Positions 2,600 to 17,301 of a DNA stretch of 21,917 nt are shown here, one piece after another. Each line of letters begins with the position of its first letter. The first letter of the stretch is position 1. The DNA is from a virus (Duplodnaviria > Heunggongvirae > Uroviricota > Caudoviricetes): positions 1 to 21,917 of the IMG/VR virus record IMGVR_UViG_2751185961_000012; one strand, given 5' to 3'. The notes beneath the pieces are model-generated. The model made no database searches. It saw only the letters and a list, made by a program, of their open reading frames with translations, and had not been told where the DNA came from. The position numbers were made by a program, and so were the translations under genes.

Positions 2600-3112
2600 T
2601 CAGAGGCTTAAGGTGAAGCCTTTTCGGGAATTTCGATCTGACAGTCTTGAAATATCCTGTAGCGTGCGGCGCATTTCTTCCGTCAGATGTTTGAAGGCGT
2701 TAAATTCAGCAACAGCGGCATCGACGTTATAGCCCTTGCTGTGTAGCTCGTTGAGGATGCGCATAGTTGGGCTTGGCATATCGAAGAGCACAGAAACGTC
2801 CAGGTTAAGAGTTTTTCGATCAACATAGCTCATCATGGAGTAGGGGTGATGTTCAGAAAACCACGAGAGAGGGTAGTTGATAGATAGTGTTGATTCTGGA
2901 AGCTGAAGTTGTTCTGGGATTTTTTGACTGAAATAGCAGTCTTCCAGTTTTTCGAACACATCCCACGCTAATTCAGATGTGCGTGTGCATACGACAATAA
3001 AAAACACGCTCGCGGCGTGTGTCTGTCGCGGTTGAATATCCGGGGTCTCAATCCCGACGCCAGATTTTGCTGGCGTGCGGAGAATATAATCCCGGATACG
3101 CGACGTTGTCAA
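2600..3112 (-). CDS. Paralog or remnant of the antirepressor C-terminal domain (C-terminal about 95 aa is near-identical to the C-terminus of the 12096..12734 protein)
   Basis: C-terminal region INYPLSWFSEHHPY...LFDMPSPTMRILNELHSKGYNVDAAVAEFNAFKHLTEEMRR matches 12096..12734; the annotated start is a non-ATG (TTG-type) codon, so this may be truncated or a pseudogene. Confidence 0.45.
   Translation of the reverse strand: MTTSRIRDYILRTPAKSGVGIETPDIQPRQTHAASVFFIVVCTRTSELAWDVFEKLEDCYFSQKIPEQLQLPESTLSINYPLSWFSEHHPYSMMSYVDRKTLNLDVSVLFDMPSPTMRILNELHSKGYNVDAAVAEFNAFKHLTEEMRRTLQDISRLSDRNSRKGFTLSL
2666..2882. repeat. Dispersed direct repeat copy A (about 220 bp, roughly 85-90 percent identical to 12162..12386)
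   Basis: Long runs of identical sequence read by eye, e.g. cggcgcatttcttccgtcagatg...ttgaaggcgttaaattc...ctgtgtagctcgttgaggatgcgcatagttgggcttggcatatcgaagagcac...ccacgagagagggtagttgat. Confidence 0.8.
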
Positions 3113-3179
3113 ACTGATGGCATTGCAGATCCCTACGCAATGTAATACTATGTGTTATACATTAATAACGGAACAAAAA

Positions 3180-3551
3180 ATGCGCATTTTTAAAAACGCC
3201 TGGTTTGAGCGATTTGCACGCAAAAACAAAATATCCGACCAGTCACTGCGCGAAATTGTTAAACAGGCTGATAACGGGCTTATCTCAGCAAACCTGGGTA
3301 ACGGCGTTATCAAGCAACGTCTGCCACGAGTCGGTGGCGGCAAATCTGGCGGTTATCGCACAATCATTTTCTATCGCGTCGGCACAAGGGCCTTTTTCGT
3401 ATATGCATACGCAAAAAATGAACGTGAAAATATAACCGCTACTGAGGAAAGTGCATTTCGGAAGGTGGCTCCTCACGTACTCAATCTAACAGATGAACAA
3501 CTGGCACAACTGATTCTACAGGGTCAGTTTACGGAGGTACCCAATGAGTAA
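3180..3551 (+). CDS. RelE/ParE-superfamily toxin, HigB2-like (Toxin_HigB2 type)
   Basis: Recalled HigB2 signature: glycine-rich basic block (RVGGGKSGGYRTIIFYR) followed by FFVYAYAKNEREN; toxin-first order with 8-bp overlap onto the HTH antitoxin gene; start trimmed to MRIFKNAWF. Confidence 0.7.
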   Translation: MRIFKNAWFERFARKNKISDQSLREIVKQADNGLISANLGNGVIKQRLPRVGGGKSGGYRTIIFYRVGTRAFFVYAYAKNERENITATEESAFRKVAPHVLNLTDEQLAQLILQGQFTEVPNE

Positions 3552-3864
3552 AAATTACCGCAGTGATGCGCTTGCATCCGTACATGAAATGATGGAATCG
3601 CTTCATGATATCGGCGCAGTAACGAAACAGACTATGCGAGAATTCGATGAACTCTGCCTGCAACCAGCACCTTCAATGTCTCCTGAAAGAATCCGGGAAC
3701 TCCGTGAGCGTGAACATCTGTCACAATCCGTCTTTGCCAGATACATGAATGTCAGTAAAAACCTGATATCTGACTGGGAACGCGGAGTGAAACGCCCTGG
3801 TGGTCCCGCCCTGCGACTTCTTTCCGTTATTGAAAAAAACGGGATTCAGGCCATAAATGTTTGA
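3544..3864 (+). CDS. HigA2/XRE-type helix-turn-helix antitoxin
   Basis: 106-aa protein with C-terminal XRE-like HTH (IRELREREHLSQSVFARYMNVSKNLISDWERGVKRPGGPALRLL); translationally coupled to the upstream toxin gene. Confidence 0.7.
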   Translation: MSKNYRSDALASVHEMMESLHDIGAVTKQTMREFDELCLQPAPSMSPERIRELREREHLSQSVFARYMNVSKNLISDWERGVKRPGGPALRLLSVIEKNGIQAINV

Positions 3865-3884
3865 TTACCTTCACTACCGCGCCG

Positions 3885-4166
3885 TCATTCTGGCGGCGCT
3901 TCCCCCAGAGAAGAAATATCATCACCGGATTGCCACATCCACTCCGGCCCCTGCCATCTCAGATCCGGTGAATCATTTCTCTCAGGAATAACTATTACGT
4001 TCCTTTCCATCCGCTCCCTTTCTATCGCCATCACAGCCAATGCTGCAACCATGATGTATTTTTGCTCGTCGGTTCCTGTTTCATAGCGCCACATGAGGGT
4101 AAACTCGGGGCGATCAGTAACCTCAATGATTTCGTTAATTTCTTTAATTTCGCGAGGAATATCCAT
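3885..4166 (-). CDS. Hypothetical protein, about 93 aa
   Basis: Minus-strand ORF convergent with the HigA gene; start trimmed to MDIPREIKE; its ATG overlaps the ATG of the divergent 4165..4839 gene within a CATG palindrome. Confidence 0.4.
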   Translation of the reverse strand: MDIPREIKEINEIIEVTDRPEFTLMWRYETGTDEQKYIMVAALAVMAIERERMERNVIVIPERNDSPDLRWQGPEWMWQSGDDISSLGEAPPE

Positions 4167-4839
4167 GGGTTTAGTCTCCTTTGACATTACATGCCCGCAC
4201 TGTTTAAAAGAGCGAGCTGTTATTGAGGCATTTGCCGAAAAACAAATTGAAAAAACACCTCTTTTTAACGTCGCTTTTGTATGCAGAAGTTGTCATCAAG
4301 GAGGTGTTGCTATTGTTGAAATCCCATCAGACCACTATCACGGCCCTATGGCGGAAAGCCAGAAAAAAGACCTTGATATTCTGATTTCAGGAAATAGCCA
4401 GTACCGTTTCCGCAAGATCTATCCTGCGGTCAAAAAAATTACCGCACCAGAATCTACGCCCCCGGTTGCAGACCGTACTTTTGTTGAGGCAAAAGAGGAT
4501 TTACAGAGGAGGCGGTACGACACAGTGGTTATTCTTTGTCGCAGAGTCCTCGATATCTCAACGAAAAAACTGCTCGGCGATGAAGCAGGAAAAGAATCTC
4601 TGTCGCAACGTATTCAGATGATTTACAAAAAAGGCCTGATCACTGAACAGATGAAGGAATGGGCTCATATTGTACGAATAGATGCCAATAAAGCAGTTCA
4701 TACAGATGAAGTATTCACACCAATTGAGGCAAGCCAGATACTGAGTTTTACCGAAATGTTTTTAGTCTACGCCTTCACTCTGCCTGCAATGGTGGAAGCC
4801 AGATGTGACCAAAAAAGATCAGATTCAGCCTCTATATGA
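4165..4839 (+). CDS. Zinc-ribbon plus DUF4145-domain protein (candidate defence or regulatory effector), about 224 aa
   Basis: N-terminal Cys pairs CPHC ... CRSC; C-terminal half matches the recalled DUF4145 pattern (RRVLDISTKKLLGD ... LSQRIQMIYKKGLI ... AHIVRIDANKAVH ... LSFTEMFLVYAF); the upstream part of the long ORF (4093..) is antisense junk, so the start is placed at MGLVSFD. Confidence 0.65.
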   Translation: MGLVSFDITCPHCLKERAVIEAFAEKQIEKTPLFNVAFVCRSCHQGGVAIVEIPSDHYHGPMAESQKKDLDILISGNSQYRFRKIYPAVKKITAPESTPPVADRTFVEAKEDLQRRRYDTVVILCRRVLDISTKKLLGDEAGKESLSQRIQMIYKKGLITEQMKEWAHIVRIDANKAVHTDEVFTPIEASQILSFTEMFLVYAFTLPAMVEARCDQKRSDSASI

Positions 4840-4912
4840 ATCTCTTTTCTGAACACGTAAATACTACTCCGACACACAGTAAGCCTCCCCCCCGTCATTC
4901 ACGACGGGGATG

Positions 4913-5650
4913 TCATGTTCCAAACTCTGCGTTGTTCTCCGCCTCCAGGATTTCTTCGATCTTCTGTACTCCCCGATTATTATAGCGAAAGGTTTCTACC
5001 TGCTTATCCGAGTGCGGGGATTTGTCGATGAACCATTTCCCGTATTGTTCTGTTTTGAGCATGTAGGTATTGGCAATGCGACCAACCTTGTTAGCGGATA
5101 TTTTGAGTTGCACTCCAACTTCTGACGCCGAATAGTAATGTTCATTGATCATCGGTAGCGGGATTACGTTAGCGCCTACAACGGGATTAACCAGGCTGGC
5201 GGCAACGACCTGTTTGGCTTCAGGGGCAAGGTTGGGGAGGAATCCGAAAAGGTCTTTCATTGTATCGACGGTCATTTTCAGCGCCCGCGCTTTGCGGAAT
5301 TCCTCAAGGCCGTTAGTCGAATGTTTCGTGGTGGTTTTTTGTTGCAGTTGCTGTTGCATTGACTCCAGTTGATCGACCAGCGAACGACGGACGGATTTAG
5401 ATTCACGAGCGGCAACCCGAAGCGCTTGTTTATAGGTCATCACAATAACAACCTGATCCGCACCACCTTTTTTCTTATCCATGGGGGTTACGAAATTTTC
5501 GTAACCCTCCCCCTCAAGTTCATCTTTGATGCGTGCAATGAAGTCGTTGTTGCGTACTTCTTTTTCACCGCACAGTCTCCGCGCTTCATTCACCATTTTC
5601 AACAGAGCCTGGCTGTCGATAGTTCCATTTTTCATTATATTATTTTTCAT
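4913..5650 (-). CDS. Phage antirepressor-like protein with KilA-C-type C-terminal domain
   Basis: 245 aa; C-terminal block YYSASEVGVQLKISANKVGRIANTYMLKTEQYGKWFIDKSPH fits the KilAC pattern of P22 Ant-like proteins; GAGAGG Shine-Dalgarno about 8 nt upstream of ATG at 5650. Confidence 0.6.
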   Translation of the reverse strand: MKNNIMKNGTIDSQALLKMVNEARRLCGEKEVRNNDFIARIKDELEGEGYENFVTPMDKKKGGADQVVIVMTYKQALRVAARESKSVRRSLVDQLESMQQQLQQKTTTKHSTNGLEEFRKARALKMTVDTMKDLFGFLPNLAPEAKQVVAASLVNPVVGANVIPLPMINEHYYSASEVGVQLKISANKVGRIANTYMLKTEQYGKWFIDKSPHSDKQVETFRYNNRGVQKIEEILEAENNAEFGT

Positions 5651-12734: not shown

Positions 12735-13000
12735 ATTTTATGTCCTTTGCATTTGTTCAGATAGCCCTGTGTTCAGCAGGGCGGCCAGGTACTTGAACAC
12801 CGTGCAAAGTCGGCCCGTATCCTTAACCTTTCGGCTGTTTTTCGGTATACGCGCTACCCGACCATATCTGAAAAATGGACATAAAAAAGCCGCATGACTG
12901 ACGGGTGCGGTCTCCGCTTTGCAAGGTGTGTTCAGCACCATGAGGTGGAATATATCCCCGTCGATGTGGATTTGTCAAGGTTGCTTTGGCAGAAACATGT

Positions 13001-16587: not shown

Positions 16588-17301
16588 TCAATCAAAAGTA
16601 TCATCATTCCACTGCGATTTGATGACCTTTCCGACAAACTGGCAGTTTTCGTTACACTCAATCATGTCGAATCGTGGGTTGAGCGGCTCCAGGTACGCTT
16701 TACCGCTCTCACGAATGAATCGTTTGAAGGTGAATTCATCGCCGTTCATTCGGGCCACGCAAAAATCGCCATCCTCGATTTCCCGTTCAGGGTCAACGAG
16801 TATCAGCATACCTTCAGGGAAGCTGGGTTTACCTCCCTGTGGCGCGGTCATTGAATGCCCCTTAACTTCCAGCCAGAACGACCTGTTACTGGCTTTTGTG
16901 GTGGTGGAGATCCACTTAATCGCATCCTTTGCGGTGTACGAAATATCATCCATTGTGAATGCGCCAGCCTGTACGCAGGAGAGTAACGGATATTCGTAAG
17001 CAGGGACACGAGTTAATGGCTCTTCAATCGCGAGCGCCATTTCTGCAATAGATTTTGCCAAGCTGGGGCTGAAATCTCCGACCTTTACATTCAGTAACTT
17101 AGCAAGCTGCGCTGCGTGACTGGCATTTATGGCGTTGATGCCAGCCATTAGCTGATTAACGGCACTTTGGGTAACACCTAGTTCATAGGCTAATGACTCC
17201 TGTGACAAGCCTAACTCTTTCTTTTTAGCGATGAAAATGCTTTTAAGACGCTTGGCGTCTTCCAGTTGCTCAGGGGTTAACGGTTTCTTTTTCATGTTCA
17301 T
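16588..17301 (-). CDS. cI: Lambda-type CI repressor (N-terminal HTH, C-terminal S24/LexA-like autocleavage domain)
   Basis: 237 aa, collinear with lambda CI as recalled ([17 protein letters not shown] ... LGLSQESLA ... [31 protein letters not shown] ... [19 protein letters not shown] ... LEPLNP); divergent from cro. Confidence 0.9.

Follow-up and report, generated by a model that had tools for sequence, protein, structure and literature searches.

The stretch of DNA analysed here (the window: positions 1 to 21,917 of the IMG/VR virus record IMGVR_UViG_2751185961_000012, 21,917 nucleotides, nt) is the early-left arm of a lambdoid Escherichia coli prophage. Over the compared positions 3100-5000 it is 99.8% identical to phage PhiR12_3 of ECOR13. 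Within this arm, a plus-strand gene for a zinc-ribbon protein with a predicted RNase domain (the RNase gene) lies head-to-head with a small open reading frame (ORF) on the minus strand (the partner gene), and the start codons of the two genes overlap. The features of this pair are the following.

4165..4839, plus strand: RNase gene, coding for a putative protein of the RAZR (ring-activated zinc-finger RNase) type of 224 amino acids (aa), with an N-terminal Cys4 zinc ribbon, a linker and a predicted C-terminal DUF4145/HEPN RNase domain
4165..4329, plus strand: zinc-ribbon domain, residues 1-55 approximately, with the motifs CPHC (C10/C13, nt 4192-4203) and CRSC (C40/C43, nt 4282-4293)
4450..4800, plus strand: HEPN (DUF4145) domain, residues 96-212 approximately, with the predicted catalytic residues R171 (nt 4675-4677) and H179 (nt 4699-4701) in VRIDANKAVH
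3885..4166, minus strand: partner gene, coding for 93 aa, of which about 56 (nt 3999..4166) form a conserved three-helix core; the tail is variable and frameshift-prone
4163..4168, no strand: CCATGG palindrome containing both start codons (plus-strand ATG 4165-4167, minus-strand ATG 4166-4164)
4154..4158, plus strand: Shine-Dalgarno-like GAGGA of the RNase gene, antisense of partner codons 3-5
4176..4181, minus strand: Shine-Dalgarno AAGGAG of the partner gene, antisense of RNase-gene codons 4-6

A profile search with the 224-aa protein matched the Pfam family DUF4145 (PF13643) at residues 118-197, with an E-value of 3.4e-9 and 37.1 bits (cut-off 23.1). In an alignment of the protein and its relatives (n=24), the four cysteines C10, C13, C40 and C43 were invariant, as were C125, R126, D130 and the motif R171-x-D173-x-N175-x3-H179. 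The AlphaFold2 (AF2) model recovered the HEPN fold and placed the beta strands of the zinc ribbon at residues 4-6, 20-27, 33-40 and 46-52, which bears out the zinc ribbon plus DUF4145 architecture proposed by the initial annotation. The protein thus combines the alpha-helical core and the R...H motif that define the DUF4145 family within the HEPN superfamily (Pfam clan CL0291). Its closest relatives by HEPN fold were the toxins 5yep (10.3) and 7ae2 (9.8), followed by Csm6, LsoA, AbiA, AbiV and Gifsy-1 HepS. On the zinc-ribbon side, the family profile gave marginal matches to the ribbons of RPB9 and L44, the first of which is also the comparison used for RAZR (PMC13017515). The ribbon was the second most variable region of the protein after the linker, with a mean pairwise identity of 0.39 vs 0.59 for HEPN.

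Proteins of this family measure about 212-224 aa, were found in Enterobacterales and beyond (83 matches), and at present carry the annotation 'DNA binding protein' or 'DUF4145 domain-containing protein'. When 1.84 billion cluster representatives were searched with the family profile, 217 proteins passed a threshold of E<=1e-30, and 1,432 passed E<=1e-10. Among the best 150 representatives, 133 were full-length; CxxC...CxxC was kept in 117 of these, and the R..N...H motif in 122.

The same architecture is known from PD-T7-4, a defence protein found by functional isolation (Vassallo et al. 2022; PMC9519451) and renamed RAZR (Zhang et al. 2026; PMC13017515; PDB 9y9c). In RAZR, a Cys4 zinc ribbon at the N-terminus is followed by a conserved linker and, at the C-terminus, by a DUF4145/HEPN RNase domain with the catalytic residues R146 and H154, and that work showed DUF4145 to be a divergent HEPN RNase (PMC13017515). 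By itself RAZR is non-toxic, even when over-produced; it is activated by polymerising as a 24-mer around phage protein rings, either a T7-type portal or the Erf-like Gp77, and the active form cleaves single-stranded RNA without specificity (PMC13017515). The zinc ribbon is both its specificity determinant and its most variable region, and what is said to guard it against self-activation is the lack of large rings of the right size in the host, whose one such ring is wider (PMC13017515).

Several comparisons connected the window protein with RAZR. R171 and H179 fell on R146 and H154 of RAZR in three independent alignments, in which VRIDANKAVH paired with CRIVGNQAVH, and an hhalign comparison with 23 proteins of the RAZR clade gave a probability of 85.8% (E 5.4e-6). 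PD-T7-4 was the best PADLOC family for 12 of 24 members, with a best E-value of 2.8e-7; on the window protein itself the PADLOC PD-T7-4 model gave a weak, partial match (E 7e-4, 17.1 bits), which means in practice that this RNase family is scored only weakly by that model. The two proteins have similar lengths (219 aa for RAZR, 224 aa here), the same order of parts and the same Rx7H spacing of the catalytic Arg/His; in both, the zinc ribbon is variable, the gene is carried by mobile elements and abortive infection is predicted. They differ in their setting. Canonical RAZR loci have no partner gene and lie co-directionally with an integrase gene, at its 3' end, whereas members of the prophage family are found within lambdoid prophages, in antisense to the lytic operons, and in most cases have a head-to-head partner. 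Taken together, the similarities are weak but consistent, and we classify the product of the RNase gene as a probable distant relative with the architecture of RAZR, short of a proven RAZR. The defence function proposed by the initial annotation thus appears essentially right as to the likely role, although it was out of date, since the same architecture is that of the characterised RAZR/PD-T7-4 (PMC13017515).

The minus-strand ORF next to the RNase gene proved to be a genuine coding gene. Differences between its homologues were distributed over the three codon positions as 1931/1611/3704, and comprised 2,115 synonymous codon changes. This concentration at minus-frame third positions rules out that conservation of the plus-strand leader alone accounts for the conserved ORF. 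With a profile made from enterobacterial sequences only, the other small ORFs scored between 68 and 10 bits, vs at most 8.6 bits in 2,000 shuffled controls. A word-index protein search with the partner returned close E. coli relatives only, and the distant ones were obtained by translation of the opposite strand directly upstream of the RNase gene in its homologues, which gave the consensus MN..Ls.EI...L.saDRPEFtLmQRYEt.s.dQK..FV.ALIGKLIEQDR. The partner is predicted to form helices at residues 5-16, 20-30 and 33-56, with a predicted local distance difference test (pLDDT) value of about 85 for this core, which is followed by the disordered, frameshift-prone tail.

We then compared 104 loci, which came from 18 species-representative genomes (1 dropped), from IMG/VR (80) and from 7 sequences found earlier, including the window, and which fell into 49 non-redundant clusters at 90% RNase identity. 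The small ORF was present in 70 loci (32 clusters), a likely degraded copy in locus L025 being scored as none. At 65 loci (30 of the 49 clusters) its ATG overlapped that of the RNase gene by the same two bases, and two Pasteurellaceae had a CATaATG spacing instead of the CATG overlap. The 30 clusters span Alpha-, Beta- and Gammaproteobacteria, including Photorhabdus, Paraburkholderia, Zoogloeaceae and uncultured Alphaproteobacteria, and the overlap was also seen in a more distant metagenomic representative (P0244). In the opposite direction, a search of IMG/VR that started from the small ORF, with a pattern taken from enterobacterial sequences only, found the RNase gene in the same register at 36 of 43 loci. 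The 7 exceptions were a single E. coli lineage, in which homology stops at the start codons themselves and a GTG a few codons upstream serves as the start of the small ORF, so that orphan copies of the partner occur in E. coli phages that have no RNase gene. The real unit is therefore a fixed two-gene module of RNase gene and small ORF, and the 'stand-alone' protein of the initial annotation has a conserved partner. Such a partner, head-to-head and with overlapping starts, is a new element that has not been described for RAZR.

The clusters without partner belong mainly to a 212-aa clade that begins with 'MAM(M/L)SID' (L010, L021, L030 and L095-L116; Enterobacter, Citrobacter and related prophages). 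There the RNase gene is head-to-head with the terminase small-subunit gene, at a distance of about 33 nt, in the late region between lysis and packaging genes. We also observed that in this clade, too, the gene runs against lytic transcription and has hardly any room for a promoter.

As a separate observation, in two E. coli prophages with the small ORF only (L003, at 4304..4605, and L004) an unannotated spacer of about 300 base pairs (bp) replaces the RNase gene. The orphan partner of L003, from E. coli ST866, is at 4046..4303. In this region a possible plus-strand ORF of 96 aa (L003 4437..4727), with a GGAGGA Shine-Dalgarno sequence, overlaps an annotated minus-strand gene; it had no match to a Pfam or PHROG family.

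The two-base ATG/ATG overlap is far beyond chance, as it recurs in all 30 clusters while RNase identity falls to about 32%. The start codons that compose it, given correctly by the initial annotation together with the CATG overlap, were confirmed by the alignments of homologues: M1 of the RNase was invariant in the 24 aligned proteins, and the profile alignment of the small ORF begins exactly at the overlapping ATG in the 65 related loci. An upstream start at 4093 for the RNase gene and another at ATG 4187 for the partner, the latter from automatic ORF extension, were rejected by the same kind of alignment. Shine-Dalgarno-like motifs were also retained. At the position for the RNase gene they measured at least 3 nt in 29 of the 30 clusters and at least 4 nt in 18, and at the position for the partner gene they were present in 27. 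Synonymous variation in partner codons 2-8 was 0.28, vs 0.52-0.56 elsewhere in the gene, as expected for codons that serve also as the leader of the RNase gene. Since each ribosome-binding site lies inside the first codons of the other gene and no intergenic DNA exists, the two mRNAs must have complementary 5' ends. The initial annotation was also sound in deducing that at least one of the two genes must have its promoter within the other. A terminator-like site at 4588..4570 on the minus strand, within the RNase gene, was no better than shuffled sequences and was discarded.

All RNase homologues examined were located in prophages, in the nin, early-left or late regions of lambdoid genomes, which agrees with the prophage accessory slot that had been suggested for the gene. 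As the initial annotation had noted, the RNase gene is oriented against its surroundings: it is antisense to the flanking ORFs in the window, and in 42 of 49 clusters most of the flanking ORFs are on the strand opposite to it. The flanks being mostly on the strand of the partner, this gene shares the direction of the lytic operon, whose transcription passes through the RNase gene in antisense. The pair is rare in E. coli, with 48 occurrences, all chromosomal, in 5,426 complete genomes.

With regard to the relationship between the two proteins, divergence of the partner followed that of the HEPN domain (Spearman 0.87) more closely than that of the adjoining, fast-evolving zinc ribbon (0.71). 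In those pairs with partners at least 90% identical, mean identity was 85% for HEPN and 51% for the zinc ribbon. This pattern fits a fast-evolving sensor domain, as in RAZR, together with a conserved relationship between partner and HEPN domain.

These observations led us to propose that the pair may be a RAZR-type defence expressed in the lysogen, in which the partner silences or neutralises the RNase during lytic growth of the prophage itself, an explanation to which we give slightly better than even credence. We infer the RNase activity, its trigger, the expression pattern and the inhibitory role of the partner. If the protein works as RAZR does, its Cys4 zinc ribbon would act as a sensor by binding some protein of the infecting phage, which in the case of RAZR is a ring of portal or Erf-like recombinase; the oligomerisation that follows would position the HEPN domains (R171/H179) for non-specific RNA cutting, and the resulting stop of translation would protect the lysogen population. 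The RNase gene would be on in the lysogen and transcribed against the lytic operon, in the manner of a lysogen-expressed moron. Once the prophage becomes lytic, read-through would run antisense across the RNase gene and the partner would be made, acting as a protein, via antisense transcription, or both. The portal or recombinase rings of the prophage itself would then fail to trigger suicide, which would amount to self-immunity. An induced prophage makes its own rings, so that the safeguard of RAZR, a host without rings of the right size, breaks for a RAZR-type gene carried by a temperate phage. Co-orientation of the partner with the lytic operon makes a switch the most likely nature of the pair, and we count as support for an inhibitor or switch this co-orientation, the divergence that tracks HEPN, the existence of orphan partners, the synonymous constraint over the leader of the RNase gene and the rings that a prophage makes, which the safeguard of RAZR presumes to be absent.

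Several results weigh against this proposal. Concerning the link to RAZR, the RAZR chain 9y9c_OA was the sole match of a phmmer search against the PDB, but with an E-value of 1.1, and the family profile found 9y9c as its second match at a weak E-value of 0.074. The hhalign alignment to the RAZR family had about 29% identity over 98 columns and covered the linker and HEPN domain only, leaving the zinc ribbon unaligned. Foldseek with the RNase protein gave no significant match and did not list 9y9c, and the active-site loop 172-179 was of low confidence in the model. Concerning the partner, its gene is missing in 17 of 49 RNase clusters, and its protein had no recognisable fold relatives and no helix-turn-helix (HTH)-like structural match. 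RAZR is a single gene and non-toxic alone, so an inhibitor is not obviously required. The overlap may persist simply because any insertion or deletion there destroys one of the two starts. Finally, no consistent sigma-70 promoter was found, either by a consensus scan of the window or by scanning both directions in the 30 clusters; at about 75 nt upstream there is a weakly conserved TTGATC-16-TAxCGx, which, like an invariant CAA codon for Gln35, is suggestive only.

Other explanations of the pair were considered against the same evidence. The tight reciprocal linkage, the conserved geometry and a divergence that follows the HEPN domain would also be obtained if the small protein were a positive component of a two-protein defence, be it a co-sensor, an adaptor or an activator of transcription of the RNase gene. 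We judge this unlikely, as the two genes cannot share a transcript and the partner has the orientation of the lytic operon; moreover, RNase genes exist or function in its absence, both in the partner-less clusters and as canonical RAZR (PMC13017515), the partner stands alone in some phages, and an HTH-like structure was not recognised in it. At the other extreme, the partner could be an ordinary, unrelated phage gene, and the overlap a frozen accident of compact genomes that have no intergenic DNA in which the two could be separated. The E. coli lineage with the small ORF alone and a breakpoint exactly at the start codons is in line with this idea, and so are the several clades with the RNase gene alone and the failure of the promoter scans. 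Nevertheless, the pair has survived extensive mosaicism, through nin and early-left positions, varied neighbours and three proteobacterial classes, and beyond that one lineage every small ORF found adjoins an RNase gene, so that we assign an accident a low probability.

Equally, a HEPN protein beside a small protein could suggest an addiction module of toxin-antitoxin type, in which a dangerous constitutive toxin and a small antitoxin stabilise the prophage and no phage is sensed. This is improbable in our opinion: type II toxin-antitoxin pairs are co-transcribed from one autoregulated operon, and the head-to-head layout found here, on opposite strands and with overlapping starts, is the reverse of that and permits no common mRNA. 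Besides, over-produced RAZR alone is non-toxic, many family members have no partner, and the zinc ribbon evolves fast, as a sensor would. A DNA-binding regulator is what the label 'DNA binding protein' of phrog_1305 and of NC_029120 gp19 would imply, and the position of the RNase gene beside a toxin-antitoxin pair in the window could make it a third component of that HigBA-like system; we consider either of these very improbable. The label appears to be based on the zinc ribbon alone, and we rejected it on account of the HEPN fold and the invariant RNase-type R/H motif. A tripartite unit was discarded as well, for the cassette is exchanged independently and is missing in most relatives, and homology with other phages ends at 3872.

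If the partner does restrain a lysogen-expressed RNase, a bolder version, which we offer tentatively and regard as rather doubtful, would make the pair a dedicated toggle for a suicide RNase, in which the overlapping starts and the antisense ribosome-binding sites render the defence (in the lysogen) and an antidote of about 56 aa (in lytic growth) mutually exclusive, the antidote is a direct anti-RAZR protein that binds the conserved HEPN domain, and the orphan copies of other lambdoid phages serve as counter-defence against RAZR-type immunity. The widespread prophage subfamily with its fixed opposite-strand partner is a candidate for how a mobile element can carry such a weapon without self-harm, and the partner may be the first natural inhibitor of RAZR-type RNases. 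A divergent start overlap kept from Alpha- to Gammaproteobacteria would also lend itself unusually well to the study of mutually exclusive expression where 5' ends overlap.

Known systems offer parallels for parts of this proposal. The prophage abortive-infection system BstA/aba reportedly needs a cognate means to spare its own prophage, its self-immunity element being, as is said, a DNA site within the bstA gene. The logic of self-immunity is the one proposed here, but the proteins are unrelated, and our candidates are a small protein of its own, antisense transcription, or both. HEPN RNase toxins are neutralised by small proteins in the case of RnlA and LsoA with Dmd of phage T4, and in HEPN-MNT pairs. 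Inhibition of the Dmd type parallels the role proposed for the partner, which nevertheless has no sequence or fold similarity to either Dmd or MNT and is arranged head-to-head, not in an operon. As regards the RNase domain, a survey of 2013 had placed DUF4145 in the HEPN superfamily as predicted defence RNases, and lists fusions of DUF4145 to a zinc ribbon, a restriction endonuclease, a helicase and AbiJ-NTD1 (Anantharaman et al., PMC3710099). Being a sequence survey, it describes no partner gene or head-to-head layout for this branch (PMC3710099). DS-38, an E. coli HEPN plus zinc-finger defence protein identified by DefensePredictor, was validated and compared with PD-T7-4 (PMC13092281). It is not the protein of the window, because DS-38 (WP_001313577.1) is encoded by a 1,101-nt gene and has 366 aa vs 224 aa, and the table of tested systems in the same work has no DUF4145 entry. 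Independently of these comparisons, we observed in Yersinia prophages that carry the two-gene module (L013-L015, 9490..10410) a gene with a BstA_C domain beside the repressor.

The module is accompanied in the window by the following neighbouring features.

3180..3864, plus strand: toxin-antitoxin cassette, with a PF06296 RelE-family toxin at 3180..3551 (E 1.5e-46) and an HTH/MqsA-like antitoxin at 3544..3864
3879..3899, plus strand: GC-rich hairpin at the left edge of the module, over the partner stop codon, without U tract (fold -16.5 kcal/mol, z -3.97)
4890..4909, plus strand: GC-rich hairpin between the RNase gene and a Roi-like gene, which converge here (fold -14.5 kcal/mol, z -2.73)

The order of a PF06296 toxin followed by its antitoxin makes the label 'HigBA-like' used by the initial annotation a fair one. 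Its view of 3180..4839 as one cargo islet was not sustained. Only 3872..4860, which contains the small ORF and the RNase gene, is common to the Shiga toxin (Stx) phages 75/02 Stx and POCJ13 and to PhiR5_2, at 96% identity, and in these three genomes the same pair lies in the nin region. Four unrelated types of cassette were found beside the module: PF06296 RelE plus HTH in the window, RelE/ParE plus a regulator in 75/02 Stx, TumE plus HVO_A0114 in strain ST866, and PF05015 HigB plus HTH beside a 69%-identical paralogue. Prophages of Atlantibacter, Yersinia and Paraburkholderia had the module with no toxin-antitoxin cassette next to it. Since the cassette is swapped or absent among relatives, the HigBA-like pair counts as a separate cassette in a hotspot and does not belong to the unit. 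In the window its toxin gene (3180..3551) is intact, with 123 aa and a full-length Pfam match; the PhiR12_3 counterpart (PV340552.1 4290..4544) is annotated with only 85 aa, and in the megablast alignment the two differ in length by one base, suggesting a frameshift in PhiR12_3.

The left hairpin (CCGCGCCGTCATTCTGGCGGCGC, region 3872..3900, at the 3' end of the small ORF) was invariant in four phage contexts, L002, L003 and L004 among them, and stands beside four different cassettes. It looks like a cassette-exchange hotspot or a boundary sequence. The hairpin at 4890..4909 has CCGTCATTC in common with it, as direct repeat D12.

Two matches to small RNA (sRNA) families were also recorded in the window. 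A full-length match to the Hfq-binding sRNA family isrK (RF01394, 73.6 bits, gathering score 50) lies at 2999..3076 on the minus strand, just downstream of the best sigma-70-like promoter of the region (3112..3083, minus strand; TTGACA-18-TATATT, 11/12) and at the 5' end of an anti-repressor-like ORF (2600..3112), and is back-to-back with the toxin-antitoxin operon. The second match, to sRNA-Xcc1 (RF02221, 65.9 bits, gathering score 53), is in the early-left region at 12775..12863, minus strand. To the right of about 12 kb the window diverges from PhiR12_3 (about 12.9-16.2 kb). A cI-like ORF of 237 aa was located at 16588..17301 on the minus strand, vs about 13.8 kb predicted by the PhiR12_3 map, and its position implies that about 2.7 kb of additional DNA separates the early-left genes from the immunity region.

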